Source: an uncultured Candidatus Saccharibacteria bacterium | Lineage (GTDB): Bacteria; Patescibacteriota; Minisyncoccia; Phycocordibacterales; Zambryskibacteraceae | Reading direction: 5' to 3' | Assembly: GCA_964383705.1 (NCBI GenBank) | Contig: CAYLHJ010000006.1 | Location: forward strand, 1-50,218 | DNA length: 50,218 nucleotides | Shown here: piece by piece, positions 12,657 through 42,120 of the stretch | How the letters are laid out: every line of letters begins with the position of its first letter | How positions within the stretch are numbered: position 1 is the stretch's first letter | Notes under the pieces: model-generated | The model's database searches: none | What the model saw: only the letters and a program-made list of their open reading frames with translations | What the model was told of the DNA's origin: nothing | Made by a program: the position numbers and the translations under genes

Positions 12657-12691
12657 AAAAAGACACCCCCTAGCTATAGGGGGTGTCTTTT
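12657..12691 (+). terminator. Intrinsic terminator
   Basis: AAAAGACACCCCCTA-GCTA-TAGGGGGTGTCTTTT. Confidence 0.85.
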
Positions 12692-35855: not shown

Positions 35856-36283
35856 ATGGTTTGATTGTTCGTTTTTAGACTAACTTCTGTTCCGGTTTGA
35901 GGTTCTGTTTTTGGATTTGCCCCAATTACTGCATTCTTCGGTAATACTAAGTGTAAATATTTTGTTTTTTTCTTACCAAAGCGATCTTCTACTTCAAGTT
36001 TCATTACTGAGTATCCAGGCGATGCAACAATCTTTTCAGAGAATTTTCCTTCTTCATTGACGAAGATAGGGGAGTCATTTAATTTTATTGAAGAAATGTT
36101 TTTTGCATCACCTTTAATGTCGAAGACATCGTAAGTAAGTGTTGCGCCATCACGAGGTTCCTCAATATTTATAACAGGTCCGGTTATGAGGTTTTTTGCT
36201 TGAAAAAGGGAATAACTTAAAATTCCAAAGATTGCGAGGAAGGTTAGCGTGACTAGAACTGTTTTTCTTGCTTCAGTTTTCAT
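35852..36283 (-). CDS. Membrane-anchored Ig-like domain protein
   Basis: N-terminal TM, GP.I.I..P.DG, G.F.E......GY....L...DRFG; overlaps both ftsK and recA. Confidence 0.7.
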
Positions 36284-38498
36284 TGTTTAAATCGGTTTCT
36301 GTACCACTTGTTTCTCCTTCTGATTTTATAAGCACATCTCTCGGTTTTGAACCCGATCCTGGGCCGACAACCCCCCTCTCCTCAAGCATATCCATCAATC
36401 TGGCTGCCCGAGCGTATCCAACACCAAGTTTTCTCTGAAGATAAGAAGTTGAGGCTTTGCCCGCGTTAATAACTACTTCGCGCGCATCCTCATACAAATC
36501 GTCTCCATCTTCATCATCCAAACTTGCATCAAATATTGCCTGTCTACCAGCGGTCTCTTGTGAAAAATCAATCTCACTTGGCAGGTCACTTTCATAGTTA
36601 TCTACCAAATATTTAACAAGGCGTTTAACTTCACTTTCAGTAATAAATGCTGATTGTATGCGCTGAGGTTTTGACATCTCGCCTGACATATAAAGCATGT
36701 CTCCTGCGCCAAGAAGTTTTTCTGCGCCTGCACTATCTAGAATTGTACGGGAATCAATTTGAGAAGCAACTTGTAATGCAATACGAGAGGGGATATTTGC
36801 CTTGATGAGACCAGTAATAACATTAACCGACGGTCTTTGTGTCGAAAGAATAAGATGTATTCCGACGGCGCGACTCATCTGAGCTAGTCTAACAATTGCA
36901 GATTCGAGCTCTCTTGGATATGCCTGCATAATGTCAGCCAATTCATCTATGATGATCACAATGTATGGCATAGTTTCTGGCATTTCTTCTGTTTCTCCAC
37001 TCTTTTCTTTATATTTTTTTAATTCTGGTTCAAGAATATTTTTATGGTAAGACTCAATATCTCTTACAGAAGATTCTTCAAGCACATCATATCTTCTGTC
37101 CATTTCCTTTGCCGCCCATTTGAGGGCGAGGATGGCTTTCTTGGCTTCTGTAATAACCGGTGTTAATAGGTGAGGGATATTGTTGTAAAGAGTAAGCTCT
37201 ACTCTTTTAGGGTCAATCATCATTAGTTTAAGCGTTTCTGGTGGGTTGCGGAAAAGAAGGGAAGAAATGATGGTGTGTATAGTTACAGACTTACCTGACC
37301 CAGTTGCTCCAGCTATGAGTAAGTGGGGCATTTTTGCAATGTTTGCAAAGTAAGATTTACCAGAGATACCTTTTCCGAGTGAAAAAAGTAGGGCTTTGTC
37401 TGATTCTTGAAACTCGGGTTCTGATAGCAAGCTACCGAGTCCGACAGTAGTTTTTGTGCTGTTTGGTATTTCAATACCGACCAGTGATTTGCCCGGTATG
37501 GGTGCTTCGATTCGAACTGGGTGTGCTGCCAATGCTAGTTCAAGATTATTCTGTAGACCTAAAATTCTGGAAAGTTTCACCCCCTCAGCCGGTTTAAGCG
37601 CGTAACGAGTTATAGATGGTCCTATTGATATCTCGTCCATCTCAACCGCAATTCCAAAATTCTGAAGAGTTCTTTTAATAATGTTTGAGTTTGCTTTTAT
37701 ATCTCCAACCCCCGGTTTACCTCTATCTTTTTCTAGAAGAGACATTGGTGGGGGAGTAAATGGTTTTAATGAAATACTTTTCTGTTTTGTTGATATGAAA
37801 TCTTGAAGGGGATCTTTGTCTTTTTTCAAATCAAGCATTTTGGATATAGGATTTCTGTTTTCAGTATTTTGATCTACTTCGTCGGCTTCTTCTCTAGCAA
37901 CCTCTTCTTTGTTTGGTTGGATGCTTTGAATAATTACAGGGGAGTCTTCTAATGTGCTCGCATTACTGTCTTTCCTAAAGTATGAAAATAAACCACTTAT
38001 TTTGGATAAGAAGTTGAATCTAAGAGTGGTATCAAAAGTGATTAGGAATGAAATAACAAGTAGGGCGACAAGTATTATGCTTGTGGCATAAACATCAAAG
38101 AAATTTATTAGGGGTCTAGATATTATATTTCCGATTAACCCTCCACCCCCTTCGAGAAGCACTGCGATAATTCCAAGTGCAGAAAGGAAAAATAACACAG
38201 AGCCAATGGTTTGTATTAAAGCAAAGTTTCTCTTCAAATTTTGGAAAAATGAGACACAGAGCATAAAAAAGAAAAGACAAAGAACATAATATCCGTAGCC
38301 AAACAAGAGGAAAAACAGGGTGAAAATCTTATTCCCAACAACACCACCTTTATCAAAGGTTGAAAGTATTAGAAATGTGCCAATAACAAAGAAAATTACT
38401 CCTAAAACAGCCCGAACTGTTTCATCCTGTAGATTTGATAGCGGATTTCTTATTGCATCAGTAATCCCATTTTCTTTCCCTTTTTTCTTTCTACCCAT
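36273..38498 (-). CDS. ftsK: DNA translocase FtsK/SpoIIIE
   Basis: 4-TM N-terminus, PHLLIAGATGSGKS, IIDELAD, TQRPS, gamma domain S.LQRKL.VGY.RAAR. Confidence 0.97.
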   Translation of the reverse strand: MGRKKKGKENGITDAIRNPLSNLQDETVRAVLGVIFFVIGTFLILSTFDKGGVVGNKIFTLFFLLFGYGYYVLCLFFFMLCVSFFQNLKRNFALIQTIGSVLFFLSALGIIAVLLEGGGGLIGNIISRPLINFFDVYATSIILVALLVISFLITFDTTLRFNFLSKISGLFSYFRKDSNASTLEDSPVIIQSIQPNKEEVAREEADEVDQNTENRNPISKMLDLKKDKDPLQDFISTKQKSISLKPFTPPPMSLLEKDRGKPGVGDIKANSNIIKRTLQNFGIAVEMDEISIGPSITRYALKPAEGVKLSRILGLQNNLELALAAHPVRIEAPIPGKSLVGIEIPNSTKTTVGLGSLLSEPEFQESDKALLFSLGKGISGKSYFANIAKMPHLLIAGATGSGKSVTIHTIISSLLFRNPPETLKLMMIDPKRVELTLYNNIPHLLTPVITEAKKAILALKWAAKEMDRRYDVLEESSVRDIESYHKNILEPELKKYKEKSGETEEMPETMPYIVIIIDELADIMQAYPRELESAIVRLAQMSRAVGIHLILSTQRPSVNVITGLIKANIPSRIALQVASQIDSRTILDSAGAEKLLGAGDMLYMSGEMSKPQRIQSAFITESEVKRLVKYLVDNYESDLPSEIDFSQETAGRQAIFDASLDDEDGDDLYEDAREVVINAGKASTSYLQRKLGVGYARAARLMDMLEERGVVGPGSGSKPRDVLIKSEGETSGTETDLNNEN

Positions 38499-38590
38499 TG
38501 TTGTGATTATTATTCACAAATAATACCACAAAGCATTAAAGTCTTTTCCTCAAAAACCTAGTTTTTTAAACATAAAAAACACATACTGAC

Positions 38591-38599
38591 TTATCCACA
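38591..38599 (+). promoter_or_regulatory. DnaA box
   Basis: Perfect TTATCCACA; others at 38510 (TTATTCACA), 39707 and 48212. Confidence 0.5.
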
Positions 38600-38609
38600 G
38601 CTCTAAGAT

Positions 38610-38866
38610 AAGGACAATTTTGGCCTAGATTCAAAAGCCTTTTTCAGAAGTTTGGATCTTAAGGACAACTTGACAATTATTAAAGGACACGATAAAATTA
38701 AAAGGACAATAAAAAGACAAATAATTTAATCAGTGACAGATTAAAAGTCATAACATTTCTATGGAATCAAACAAGGACAAATCAAATCAAATTGAAGTTC
38801 ATGATTCATCAAATAAACCCCTAAATAATAGCGATTTTGTATTAAGTCCTTATTTTAATAAAGACA
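38610..38866 (+). repeat. Array of AA(G/A)GACA heptamers over the promoter and 5' end of the 38761 gene
   Basis: AAGGACA at 38610, 38661, 38683, 38702, 38773; AAAGACA at 38713, 38860; inverted pair at 39304/39318. Confidence 0.75.
38670..38698 (+). promoter_or_regulatory. Sigma70 promoter
   Basis: TTGACA-N17-TAAAAT. Confidence 0.75.
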
Positions 38867-39615
38867 AAAATTTTACTTTCGTATTTCAAAAGATAAAAAA
38901 GATTTCGGCTGCTATATATATGCTGACAAATTTTTTTGATGATCAAGAACCACTTAAATGGTCTTTAAGGAAATTAAGTACAGATCTACTCAATACATTG
39001 TCTAGAAAATCTGATGCTCAGAGCGGGGAAGTGGTAAAAAACAAATTGTCGGAAATGATTTTAGAAATAATGTCTCTTTTGGAAGTGGCGTCTTTTGCCG
39101 GCCTCTTGTCACCTATGAATATTTCCATTATTCGCCAAGAGTTTAATGGCGTTTTAGAGAAAATTCGCACAGAGGGCATATCTTTGGGCCGTAATATTTT
39201 TGGAGCAAAGGAGGGATTTTTTAAGGTTGCTGATATTGATAATGGCACAGAAGATTATGAGGGTGCTTTTGGTACCAAAGATTCGTCATCAGGCAATAAT
39301 ATAAAAGACAAAAATATTGTCCTTAAAGATTCTTTGGATTTTGATAGGAAAGATGAAGAGATTAACAATAATTCCGAGGAAGATTTAAAGCCCAAATTAA
39401 AGGTCTTTAGTCCGGTTGCCGTCAAAAAGAACAAGAGACAGAGCGCTATAATCAACCTCATAAAAAAGAAGAAAGAAATAATGATAAAGGATGTGGCTAT
39501 GATTATTGATGATTGTAGTGAAAAAACTCTTCAAAGAGAGCTCGCTTCTCTGGTGGATAGCGGTATATTAATGAAACAAGGTGAAAGGCGTTGGACACGA
39601 TACAGCTTCGCTTAA
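38761..39615 (+). CDS. Four-helix-bundle plus C-terminal DeoR-like winged-HTH DNA-binding protein
   Basis: K..KI..AIY.LT.FF...EPL...LR helical N-domain; RQ..II.LIK...EI.IKDV......CSEKTLQREL..LV..G.L...GERRW.RY. Confidence 0.72.
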   Translation: MESNKDKSNQIEVHDSSNKPLNNSDFVLSPYFNKDKNFTFVFQKIKKISAAIYMLTNFFDDQEPLKWSLRKLSTDLLNTLSRKSDAQSGEVVKNKLSEMILEIMSLLEVASFAGLLSPMNISIIRQEFNGVLEKIRTEGISLGRNIFGAKEGFFKVADIDNGTEDYEGAFGTKDSSSGNNIKDKNIVLKDSLDFDRKDEEINNNSEEDLKPKLKVFSPVAVKKNKRQSAIINLIKKKKEIMIKDVAMIIDDCSEKTLQRELASLVDSGILMKQGERRWTRYSFA

Positions 39616-39781
39616 CCTCATAAAACCCATTGTTTATTGACTTTTTCGTCAATTTTGTTAATATGCAACCTGCTCATGGAGCTAGTTACGCTAGTTATTT
39701 CATGAGTTATCCACACGGTTTTTTGCGGATATGGAGCCTAAGGTTATAATAATGACTATATATAGGGTTAAACCTATATAT

Positions 39782-39808
39782 TGTAATAGATGGAATTATA
39801 ATCCGTCT
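39782..39808 (+). promoter_or_regulatory. ECF-sigma-type promoter TGTAAT-N16-CGTCT
   Basis: Same -35/-10 words and spacing as 9571-9597. Confidence 0.55.
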
Positions 39809-39811
39809 GAT

Positions 39812-40125
39812 TACTAAGACTTTAGTTTCCTGATCTTTGATAATTGAATAGCGAATACAAAAATTTTCTGAACCCCTTTTTTCCTCCATTCTTGTTTAAG
39901 ACAGAAAATCAGTTTTAGATTACCAACTCTCTTCTCGTCCCGAGTCGATTTGCTTTTACTTCGGTAAAGGCAAAATTGGGATGGGGGGTTGAAAAGTTGA
40001 GAAATATTATTAGGAATTTATTAGTTATTAAACCCTCTGGAGAGGAAACTCTCTGGAGTACAACCGTATGTATTTGCGAACACATTATTAGTAATTTTCG
40101 CAAATAGGTACATTGAATTTAAATT
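39812..40125 (+). promoter_or_regulatory. Long structured 5' leader with boxA-like motif
   Basis: TGATCTTTGATAATTGAA at 39831; cUUCGg hairpin 39949-39974; GAAA hairpin 40034-40057. Confidence 0.55.
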
Positions 40126-42120
40126 ATGAAAAGATTACTTACAGGTTTTGTTGCGGTTGCGATGGTTTTGACTCTCTCAGGTGTTGCTGCGGCTCCGGCT
40201 CAAGCAGCTACTGTTGCTGAGCTCTCAGCTATGATCGCTCAATTACAAGCACAGCTCGCTGCGCTTGGAGGAGGGTCTTCATCTGCTGGATACCAATTCA
40301 ACGCTGATTTGACTCTAGGTTCTTCTGGCTCAGATGTTTCTGCGCTACAGAGCTGGTTAATGTCAAAGGGATATTCAATCCCAGCTGGTGCAACTGGTTA
40401 CTTCGGTTCTCAGACACAAGCAGCATTGTCAGCTTACCAAGCGGCTAATGGTATTTCACCAGCAGCTGGTTACTTTGGTCCAATCACTCGAGCAAAAGTA
40501 AATGCTATGGGTGGCACACCAGGAACACCAACACCAGGAACACCTGGCACACCAAGTCCAGTTCTTGAAGGTGATGCAGGATCAGTTGATAACTATTCAC
40601 TTCAATCTGAGTTTAACAACGAAGATGTTGGAGAAGGAGAAGATGAGGTATCTGTTATGAGCTTTGAAGTAGAAGCTGATAATGGTTCTGACCTCGAGTT
40701 CACTTCTATGAAGGTTTGGTTTGAAAACCAAGATACTGGTTCTTCAGAAGACTTCAATGATTACGCTGACTCAGTCCAAATTTGGCTTGATGGTGAAATG
40801 GTTGGAGAAGCAGATGTAAATGATTTCTCTGCTGATGATACGTCAGGAACAGAATCAGATAACTCAACAAGCGATTCTATTGATGAATGGGAGAAAACAA
40901 TTTCTCTTGATAATGCAATCGTTCGCGCTGGTGATACATCAGAATTCGTAGTTTCTGTTACAGCAGTAAATAGCATTGACTCTTCAGATCATGATTCAGA
41001 TGATTGGGATGTTGATGTAACTAATGTTCGATTTGAAGATGCTTCAGGAGCAGTTATTTCTGAAGATCCAGCATTGGATGAAACAGCATTTGACTTCGGA
41101 ACATTCGCTGATGCAACTAACGTTGAAATGAAAGTTTCATTGTCAAATGACAGTCCAGATTCACAAGTTGTGAATGTTGACGATACAGATGAAACAGAAG
41201 GAGTTGAGCTCTTAACATTCGAAATCGAAGCTGAGGGTTCAGATATCGTTTTGAACGATATCCCAGTTCTTCTTACTGTGTCACAACCTACTGTTACTGA
41301 CGATGTTGATTTCGTTGTAAACAACCTTGTTTTGACAGTTAATGGAACAGATTACCAAGAAGCAGTTTCAACTTCAGCAGGTTCAGCAGCTACTGTTACT
41401 TTCGACGATCTTGATATCACGATTGACGAAGGTGATACGCTTGAATTCGTAGTGTCAGCAGATGTCAATGATACTCAGGCTTCTGAGTTTGTTGATGGAG
41501 ACACTTTGAAGGCCGAACTCCGCGCTTCAGAAGTTGACGCTATCGACGCTGATGATCAAGAAGGTGATTCTATTGCTGACGCTGATGCCACTGGTACAGC
41601 TCTCGGTGATGAAATGGCTTTCTACGATGTCGGTATCATGGTTACATTTGTTTCAGCTAGCGAATCAGTTGTAGATGGTGGTGTAAATGCGTTTGATGGT
41701 ACTGGTACATTTGTTATCAAGTACAAGGTAGAAGCTTTTGACGGTTCAATATACTTGTCAGATTCTGCTACAGCAACAACAGCAGCTACTATCCCAGACA
41801 CAACTCTCACTTCAGCTGGTGTTCGTTACCTTGTAGATGGTGCTGGAACAGCAACTACTGCAAATCTATCAACAGTTGTTACATTCAGTACATCTGATGG
41901 TGCAACTGATTCAGGTATAACTAACGGTGTTGAACTTGCAGATGGTGAAACATCAGAGTTCACATTGACAGCTACTCGAACGAACGACAATGCAGGTGAT
42001 GCTGGTCTATTCCGAGTACTTCTTAAGGCAATCACATGGGCAACAACTGACGCTTCAACGCAGAATGTCTATGACTTTGACCTCGAGGATTACAAGACAG
42101 ATTCAGTTTCAATCAACTAA
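40126..42120 (+). CDS. Secreted peptidoglycan-binding, highly acidic S-layer-like protein
   Basis: Signal peptide, coiled coil, PG-binding domain (L.LGS.G.DV.ALQ..L, GYFG..T..AL..YQ, GYFGP.TR), PGT linker, D/T/E-rich beta domains. Confidence 0.82.
   Translation: MKRLLTGFVAVAMVLTLSGVAAAPAQAATVAELSAMIAQLQAQLAALGGGSSSAGYQFNADLTLGSSGSDVSALQSWLMSKGYSIPAGATGYFGSQTQAALSAYQAANGISPAAGYFGPITRAKVNAMGGTPGTPTPGTPGTPSPVLEGDAGSVDNYSLQSEFNNEDVGEGEDEVSVMSFEVEADNGSDLEFTSMKVWFENQDTGSSEDFNDYADSVQIWLDGEMVGEADVNDFSADDTSGTESDNSTSDSIDEWEKTISLDNAIVRAGDTSEFVVSVTAVNSIDSSDHDSDDWDVDVTNVRFEDASGAVISEDPALDETAFDFGTFADATNVEMKVSLSNDSPDSQVVNVDDTDETEGVELLTFEIEAEGSDIVLNDIPVLLTVSQPTVTDDVDFVVNNLVLTVNGTDYQEAVSTSAGSAATVTFDDLDITIDEGDTLEFVVSADVNDTQASEFVDGDTLKAELRASEVDAIDADDQEGDSIADADATGTALGDEMAFYDVGIMVTFVSASESVVDGGVNAFDGTGTFVIKYKVEAFDGSIYLSDSATATTAATIPDTTLTSAGVRYLVDGAGTATTANLSTVVTFSTSDGATDSGITNGVELADGETSEFTLTATRTNDNAGDAGLFRVLLKAITWATTDASTQNVYDFDLEDYKTDSVSIN

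Follow-up and report, generated by a model that had tools for sequence, protein, structure and literature searches.

Direct-repeat arrays at or within their own genes, combined with autoregulation, are familiar from the iteron Rep proteins, TubR with tubC, AspA, and ParB with parS sites in its own gene; Rep proteins have inverted half-repeats at the promoter and direct repeats elsewhere. The DeoR-type and other autoregulated winged-helix repressors (PF08220; by fold ArsR/SmtB, BlaI/MecI, IclR, and ROK) have operators that overlap their own promoters. For MraZ, an octamer that opens to engage four GTG(T/G) boxes has been described (PMC12957436). Here we analyzed a stretch of 50,218 nucleotides (the window, which is contig C6 of genome G000) and identified a gene divergent from ftsK that encodes a 284-residue winged-helix protein, named the regulator below, and carries an array of the heptamer AARGACA (R, A or G) across its promoter, leader, and coding sequence. 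The array is the only one of its kind in the genome and is conserved at orthologous loci, and within the coding sequence selection acts on the DNA word, not on the peptide. Our preferred reading, to which we give a probability of about 0.68, is that the regulator is an oligomeric winged-helix autoregulator that would bind the array with avidity and occlude its own and probably the ftsK promoter, with leader and intragenic sites as auxiliary operators.

By analogy, MraZ is the closest functional counterpart of this locus. Both would combine an oligomeric regulator, several short boxes of one orientation in its own promoter, and control over division genes, the oligomer and the control of ftsK being predicted in our case. 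However, MraZ has a SpoVT/AbrB-like fold and regularly spaced boxes confined to the promoter, whereas the regulator combines a helical bundle with a winged helix and its sites are irregularly spaced and reach into coding DNA. MraZ itself is encoded elsewhere in G000, and the regulator is therefore not an MraZ replacement. The DeoR-type repressors share the type of DNA-binding domain and the overlap of operators with their own promoter, but the regulator has no effector domain and no obvious ligand, its winged helix is C-terminal instead of N-terminal, and its putative site, a 9-mer of monomer size, is asymmetric and occurs in arrays of one orientation instead of as a single palindrome, with many copies within its own coding sequence. 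The iteron Rep, TubR, and AspA proteins are likewise winged-helix proteins with repeat arrays at their own genes, and the regulator matches TubR and AspA weakly in fold; in contrast to these systems, the present locus has no motor or replication function nearby, is chromosomal and single-copy, shows no skew switch, lies in a genome with a separate ParB, and has no relatives in the plasmid and phage collections searched. The Avd/23S rRNA IVP family (PF05635; 4dwl, 2gsc, 2rld) provides the best fold matches of residues 32–145, but the regulator has no sequence-level match to it, its bundle is fused to a winged helix, and this bundle is only mildly basic. Neither a reverse transcriptase nor template/variable repeats were noticed among the neighboring genes of the window and the orthologous loci looked at. 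An autoregulated winged-helix regulator with repeated boxes is thus a known kind of system; the unnamed domain pairing, the order-wide family, and a putative operator array that reaches into its own coding sequence with a measurable effect on the protein sequence are new. The homologs carry generic names in the sources ('hypothetical protein', 'DeoR-like helix-turn-helix domain', 'predicted transcriptional regulator'); no specific name for the pairing of an Avd/IVP-like bundle with a winged helix was found in the sources searched, and a literature search returned no relevant paper.

The two divergent genes and the sites of the array are arranged as follows (window coordinates; N, any nucleotide).

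36273..38498, − strand: ftsK, an open reading frame divergent from the regulator gene, with a 262-bp intergenic region common to both.
38761..39615, + strand: the regulator gene (284 residues), assigned from the open reading frame, the structural model, fold matches, and homologs.
38610..38616, + strand: heptamer 1, AAGGACA, 11 nt downstream of TTATCCACA at 38591.
38661..38667, + strand: heptamer 2, AAGGACA, ending 2 nt before the −35 hexamer.
38670..38698, + strand: predicted sigma-70-type promoter of the regulator gene, TTGACA-N17-TAAAAT, with an 11/12 match to the consensus, the best in 38350–40200.
38683..38689, + strand: heptamer 3, AAGGACA, within the promoter spacer, the full TAAAGGACA starting at 38681.
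38702..38708, + strand: heptamer 4, AAGGACA, 3 nt after the −10 element and near the predicted transcription start.
38713..38719, + strand: heptamer 5, variant AAAGACA, in the predicted leader.
38732, + strand: AGTGACA, a weaker variant seen in the sequence.
38773..38779, + strand: AAGGACA at +12 from the ATG, codons K5-D6-K7.
38860..38866, + strand: AAAGACA, codons K34-D35-K36, where the helical domain starts.
39302..39324: linker-coding sites, with TAAAAGACA at 39302–39310 on the + strand (codons I-K-D-K, AAAGACA at 39304–39310), N7, and the inverted TGTCCTT at 39318–39324.

On rechecking the sequence, all coordinates given in the first-pass annotation for the heptamers, their variants, the inverted pair, the DnaA boxes, and the promoter proved correct, as did the spacings of 11, 19, and 22 nt; the near-consensus promoter was also rightly singled out, no other in the region searched being as good. 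Over the whole window, AAGGACA occurs 9 times, against 6.7 ± 2.5 in shuffles, and is therefore not enriched window-wide; six of these nine copies lie within 715 bp. Genome-wide, 100 AAGGACA and 298 AARGACA were counted in 674,745 bases (0.44 AARGACA per kb on both strands). The segment 38610–38860 is the only 300-bp stretch in the genome with at least four AARGACA, and it holds 7 sites, all on the + strand, where 0.11 would be expected (Poisson P = 4e-11, or 2.5e-5 after multiplying by the genome length). The idea of the heptamer as a genome-wide polar or uptake word was rejected, given its density of 0.44 per kb and the absence of an excess in the window, and a CsrA-like GGA motif was rejected because about half of the sites are AAAGACA. 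Three AAGGACA copies spaced 18–22 nt apart at C2:53719–53765 were considered as a second array and rejected, since they lie inside the coding Y-Q-G-Q repeat of a large PG_binding_1 surface protein. Elsewhere in the window, an AAAGACA/TGTCTTT pair at 12659–12690 forms the stem of a terminator-like hairpin (AAAAGACACCCCC...GGGGGTGTCTTTT) and is unrelated to the array.

Conservation was assessed over 33 loci, comprising the window's own locus and 32 orthologs (29 from genomes of the same order and 3 from another homolog set; L004, which encodes the same protein as L007, was left out). The proteins of these loci share a median pairwise identity of 34% and a maximum of 57%. An unbiased count of 7-mers from −250 to +30 ranked AAGGACA and AAAGACA first as repeated words: AAGGACA is present in 24 loci and has at least two same-strand copies in 16, and AAAGACA is present in 27 with at least two same-strand copies in 14. 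The + strand AARGACA sites are most frequent at −100 to +100 and at +450 to +750 from the ATG, the latter being linker-coding DNA. In the 100 nt immediately ahead of the ATG, 69 + strand sites were counted, compared with 0–2 per 100-nt bin within ftsK, and counts fall to the background level past the stop codon of the regulator. Each locus carries 8–15 sites over about 1 kb, and the densest cluster in each genome examined is the one on the regulator gene. The first-pass proposal of a heptamer array at this gene is thus borne out both in its own genome and at the orthologous loci. The 77 upstream sites extend the motif to TAAARGACA, with T at −2 (77%) preceding A at −1 (84%). Spacings between neighboring sites show modest modes at 11–12 and 22–24 nt within a broad distribution.

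A particular geometry at the promoter recurs in many of the loci. TATAAT directly followed by RGACA was found in 15 of the 33 loci, TGTCY (Y, C or T) just ahead of the −10 in 13, and an inverted pair bracketing the −10 in 9 (for example TGTCCgatatataatGGACA), each of which occurs in only about 0.2 loci in shuffles. TATAATGGACA was considered as a general promoter feature and rejected, because the genomes of five relatives have 0–1 copies each; in two of these relatives the copy directly precedes the regulator gene. The regulator's own promoter therefore carries a conserved cluster of sites that overlaps the predicted core promoter elements, as is typical of an autoregulated transcription factor. 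In loci with a short intergenic region, the bracketed −10 is sufficiently palindromic to work in either direction (TATAAT-GGACA on one strand and TATATA-GGACA on the other), which makes joint control of ftsK plausible. The FtsK homolog is upstream and divergent in 33/33 loci, extending to all of them the arrangement first seen in the window, and the control region is common to both genes in every locus examined, so that ftsK is probably co-regulated.

The coding sequence provides evidence of a different kind. Its sites fall in all three reading frames (83, 38, and 37 in frames 0, 1, and 2). In 1000 synonymous-codon shuffles that keep the protein sequence, 65.0 ± 5.6 sense sites were obtained, against 158 in the real genes; for antisense sites the figures are 9.5 ± 2.9 and 49. 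The use of all three frames together with the excess over synonymous shuffles on both strands shows that selection acts on the DNA word rather than on the peptide. In the linker-coding DNA, 28 sites are in frame 0 (encoding K-D-x), 30 in frame 1 (K-G-H/Q), and 6 in frame 2, depending on the ortholog (31 loci, after two without an alignment anchor were dropped, as for the densities below). Whether the motif is kept in the linker DNA regardless of reading frame had been set as a check beforehand, and the check was passed. The + strand densities are 11.7 and 10.2 sites per kb in the DNA for the N-terminal tail and the linker, and 2.3 and 4.1 in that for the bundle and the winged helix. One recurrent antisense site has a constant position in the DNA that encodes the bundle.

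Codon choice follows the same word. The Asp of K-D is encoded by GAC in 110 of 138 cases, compared with 42 of 98 in neighboring genes (P = 9e-9), and the Ile ahead of K-D by ATA in 40 of 51 cases, compared with 197 of 595 elsewhere in the same genes. The position of IKD in the linker is conserved in the protein alignment. From the spread over frames, the excess over shuffles, the GAC and ATA bias, and the high density in unstructured parts, the linker 'IKD' and the N-terminal 'M-x-x-x-K-D' are best read as footprints of the DNA word. The locus would thus illustrate with unusual clarity how binding sites within a gene constrain the protein that it encodes, the same DNA word being read in different frames in the unstructured parts of that protein.

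A model of the regulator was built with AlphaFold from an alignment of 26 sequences and divides the protein into four regions, all encoded on the + strand.

Residues 1–34, 38761–38862: disordered N-terminal tail (model).
Residues 35–145, 38863–39195: four-helix bundle (model with a predicted local distance difference test score, pLDDT, above 90; fold matches).
Residues 146–217, 39196–39411: disordered acidic linker with an isoelectric point of 4.5 (model).
Residues 218–284, 39412–39612: basic arm and winged helix (model pLDDT above 90; fold matches).

The model is confident for residues 35–142 and 219–284, whereas the pLDDT is below 50 for residues 12–22 and 160–221, in agreement with the poorly structured linker that had been predicted. 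When residues 32–145 were compared with 48,161 chains, the top four matches were 2rld (Z 14.1), 2gsc (Z 13.0), 4dwl (Avd, Z 13.0), and 8ub7_B (Z 12.6), the last being Avd within a diversity-generating retroelement (DGR) complex. Superposition aligned 105–109 residues to the IVP/Avd structures, and other bundles scored Z ≤11. Foldseek gave E = 5e-3 for 2gsc and target-normalized TM-scores of 0.74–0.80 for the IVP/Avd structures, which supports the first-pass assignment of a four-helix domain of the 23S-IVP/Avd type at the level of fold. However, no PF05635 match was obtained in the Pfam scan of the query (E ≤ 1), in the six-frame search of G000 (E ≤ 0.001), or in the profile search against PDB sequences, where only a flagellin (E = 0.24) and no IVP/Avd member was returned; moreover, helical bundles can reach Z of about 13 through their common arrangement alone. 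The N-terminal domain, which is mildly basic (isoelectric point 9.0), is therefore called IVP/Avd-like by fold in the model and not a proven member of PF05635. Avd is a pentameric barrel (PMC6182149), and by analogy the bundle probably makes the regulator oligomeric.

Residues 218–284 (pLDDT 91–94) form three helices and a beta hairpin, namely the winged helix-turn-helix fold, and match many winged helices with Z 9–11 and root-mean-square deviations of 1.3–2.5. The PF08220 HTH_DeoR match of the window protein itself (14.1 bits, E = 0.04) is below the gathering score of 21 bits, and that of P0032 reaches 20.1 bits; P0045 (24.9 bits) and P0064 (24.8 bits) exceed the cut-off, and judged from these sequences the family as a whole carries the HTH_DeoR domain. 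Pfam and NCBIfam scans detected no effector domain, and the full-length DeoR layout of an N-terminal HTH followed by DeoRC is absent; the DeoR-like winged helix lacking a ligand domain is thus as the first reading of the sequence had it. Across the 26 sequences, the recognition helix C252–L261 and residues G274, R277, and W278 of the wing are invariant, in parallel with the invariant GACA core of the motif. A conserved basic arm, VAVKKNKRQS, precedes the winged helix and may read the TAAA part of the site in the minor groove.

The family is widespread in a single order. A word-indexed search returned 159 homologs at E ≤ 1e-3, and an exhaustive search returned 4509 cluster representatives. Of 151 genomes sampled from the same order, 138 yielded the regulator; among 251 genomes sampled across the phylum, 7 yielded it at E ≤ 1e-10, four of these 7 being from the same order, G000 included. 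Protein atlas matches were restricted to unnamed clusters of the same lineage, and the plasmid and phage collections contained no relative. The pair AARGACA-N2–16-TAAARGACA is present in 129 of the 151 genomes, with about 424 matches in all (summed from the table), whereas the reversed control gave 26; by hand count, about 50 of 151 listed paired matches are at the regulator gene. The complete genome G109 has neither the regulator nor the paired pattern. Near-universal presence in one order gives the regulator some weight, as gene regulation is almost uncharted in the uncultured and genome-reduced Patescibacteria; the analysis provides a predicted 9-bp site, a predicted autoregulatory circuit, the ftsK linkage, and candidate targets, which can be tested in vitro without culture.

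Beyond the regulator gene, intergenic TAAAGGACA sites in G000 are confined to two further loci, which probably form a small regulon, judging from the shared sites: a gene for a large surface protein that is divergent from valS, and cca together with the cca-xth gap. The valS-divergent promoter carries sites in G000 (C2 56686 and 56807; L044 4187 and 4308), G093, G047, and G028, and one heptamer is at the −35 position, separated from a TATAAA by exactly 17 nt. Between valS and the surface-protein gene (1127 residues in G000) there are two to five TAAAGGACA sites with the orientation of the surface-protein gene (loci L044, L037, L039, and L045), a layout conserved in at least four genomes. In cca, two heptamers encode K-G-Q...K-G-Q and further sites lie in the cca-xth gap, in G093, G147, G025, and G000 (C1 52050 and 52219).

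Several observations were made around cca. In G093 (L038 1795–1850), three heptamers encode the conserved catalytic-region peptide ...KGQ-IDP-KGQ-D-IKDK.... The 31-mer AAGGACA..TTGAC..TATAAAGGACA recurs in the cca genes of many genomes of the order and is absent from that of G000. In G000, the convergent genes xth and cca are separated by a gap of 290 nt (C1:52004–52295; L043 1506–1795), which contains three heptamers and a promoter-like TTATCCACA-N5-TTTATT-N17-TATAAT with TGTCCTT in its spacer, followed by a terminator hairpin about 200 nt downstream. This gap is a candidate for encoding a small RNA by its sequence layout; it has no Rfam match at E ≤ 0.1 and its fold is unremarkable (z = −1.5). 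In G093 and G147, the heptamers of the gap adjoin TGTGGATAA.

Taken together, the preferred mechanism would operate as follows. We infer that the heptamers are bound by the regulator itself, its winged helix recognizing the 9-mer TAAARGACA with the core AARGACA. The Avd/IVP-like bundle would oligomerize, with the winged helix of each subunit attached through the acidic, disordered linker of some 70 residues, and several winged helices tethered in this way could then bind the irregularly spaced, co-oriented heptamers with high avidity. The sites overlap the core promoter, at the −35, in the spacer, and after the −10 in the window, or as inverted half-sites that bracket the −10 in relatives (TGTCY..TATAAT GGACA), and their occupancy should therefore block RNA polymerase and lead to negative autoregulation. 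The sites in the leader, at codons 5–7, in the N-terminal tail, and in the linker may act as auxiliary operators that raise local occupancy, by a roadblock, by looping, or as a local reservoir.

Several observations weigh against this mechanism. The promoter, −10, and leader assignments are consensus predictions, and in the 22 loci with an assignable, motif-flanked −10 (the window locus was not scored), 42 of the 45 upstream + strand full heptamers are located downstream of the −10, in the predicted leader. Sense sites in the gene outnumber antisense ones by about 3 to 1. The +12 position is occupied in 13 of the 33 loci, a count that depends on our own rule for setting the start codons of the orthologs. 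The fold-only assignment of the bundle, from which the oligomer is predicted, belongs here as well. Finally, of the 13 genomes without a detected regulator, 7 carry paired sites and 6 carry none; in the two such genomes that were inspected, the pairs are at the valS-divergent and cca loci, and these assemblies are 94–96% complete. No hidden copy of the regulator was found near the motif pairs of G028, G118, and G025, whose assemblies are incomplete.

The position and strand of the sites are also what would be seen if the protein acted on RNA, by binding UAAARGACA repeats in its own mRNA and repressing translation or altering mRNA stability, the −10 half-sites being separate or minor. The location of nearly all upstream sense heptamers in the predicted leader and the sense bias within the gene would be explained, and sites often flank the start codon, at −13 to −6 and at +12. 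Avd acts together with the DGR RNA (PMC6182149), and Z-alpha and SelB, whose ligands are RNA or unusual nucleic acids, are among the winged helices that resemble the domain most closely in fold. We nevertheless consider this explanation quite unlikely. The antisense sites far exceed the synonymous shuffles, one of them at a fixed position in the bundle-coding DNA, and the inverted TGTCY stands upstream of the −10 in 13 loci. In addition, three heptamers of the window are upstream of the predicted −10, the valS-divergent heptamer occupies a −35 position, and the modest spacing modes at 11–12 and 22–24 nt are as expected for sites on one face of duplex DNA.

An oligomer-coated patch beside ftsK could alternatively serve as a chromosomal landmark in chromosome organization, segregation, or positioning, alone or in addition to an operator role. 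The number and spread of the sites, including coding DNA that a simple operator would not need, fit such a role, as do the invariant ftsK linkage and the weak fold matches to TubR and AspA, both of which are centromere binders with a winged helix. The combination of inverted half-sites at the promoter with direct repeats also recalls iteron Rep autoregulation. In three complete relatives the regulator is 76, 92, and 100 kb from dnaA, which corresponds to 11–13% of the genome; in G000, dnaA is on a different contig. However, a canonical ParB is encoded separately (G000:C2:12378–12680), and the regulator has no match to the ParB_N (CTPase) domain in the Pfam scan. The GC skew is positive across 1–50 kb, with a local dip over the minus-strand efp-recA-ftsK island; the array as a replication origin or terminus was thus rejected, because there is no skew switch. 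As to an iteron origin with a Rep initiator, the Replication protein C match in the Pfam scan has E = 0.11, no skew switch was seen, and the single perfect DnaA box upstream is conserved in 2/33 loci. No ParA- or TubZ-like motor gene is adjacent among the neighbors in the window and the orthologous loci, no relatives were found in the plasmid and phage collections, and the other paired sites are at ordinary promoters. These points speak against the centromere, iteron, or segregation role that the first-pass annotation had suggested, and a landmark of this type appears just as unlikely as an action on RNA. A more specific version, in which the protein is more than a repressor and a multivalent oligomer coats the TAAARGACA array of about 1 kb across its own promoter and gene beside ftsK, forming a fixed nucleoprotein landmark through which division and envelope genes of these minimal cells are coupled to local gene dosage or to position on the chromosome, is speculative and to us unlikely; if it were true, selection on the landmark array would have written M-x-x-x-K-D, I-K-D, and K-G-Q into the regulator and cca.

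The DnaA boxes had been noted as flanking the locus; judged from the orthologs, they are not part of the array.

38510: DnaA-box-like TTATTCACA (from the sequence).
38591..38599, + strand: perfect TTATCCACA (the DnaA-box consensus), upstream of the array, present upstream in 2/33 loci.
39707..39750, + strand: TTATCCACA at 39707–15, N7, TTGCGG at 39723–28, N16, and TATAAT at 39745–50, a likely promoter of the downstream surface-protein gene.

The upstream box is not conserved, and the downstream one, found after the stop codon in 30/33 loci, always stands in the layout TTATCCACA-N7–9-TTGCAG-~N17-TATAAT before the next gene. It looks like a conserved promoter-upstream element, possibly of a DnaA-dependent promoter, as far as the sequence tells. 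The same layout also precedes the candidate small RNA on C1.

That the sites are read by another regulator, or by a sigma factor for which GGACA is a −35-like element, and that the neighboring gene is simply regulated, is very improbable: GGACA does resemble TTGACA, TGGACA-N17-TATAAT is an apparent promoter in several relatives, and paired sites persist in 7 of the 13 genomes without a detected regulator, but the densest cluster in every genome examined is on the regulator gene, the conserved TAAA extension has no place in a −35 element, sites of both orientations in coding DNA make no sense as promoters, the recognition helix is as invariant as the motif, and the genomes without the regulator are incomplete except for G109, which has no paired sites.

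The surroundings of the regulator gene are also conserved. The downstream neighbor encodes a 664-residue protein with a PG_binding_1 domain, and its homolog follows the regulator in 30/32 loci. An Rfam scan of 38300–40300 gave nothing credible (a single long non-coding RNA match at E = 0.77), and a tRNA search at the locus found none. Ahead of this surface-protein gene is a 510-nt non-coding gap (39616–40125), which measures 450–1100 nt at the orthologous loci. The predicted promoter at 39723–39750 implies a leader of about 370 nt for the surface-protein gene, and this leader contains an 18-nt palindrome with a perfect centre at 39752–39787, which has no Rfam match. The named relatives of the window proteins are from Zambryskibacteria, Paceibacterota, and Minisyncoccota. 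The genome G000 spans 675 kb in 20 contigs and is 99.7% complete by marker genes. Four of its contigs (C5, C10, C12, and C15) have a G+C content of 57–59%, compared with 33–41% in the other sixteen, and are probably contigs of a foreign organism that were binned into G000.

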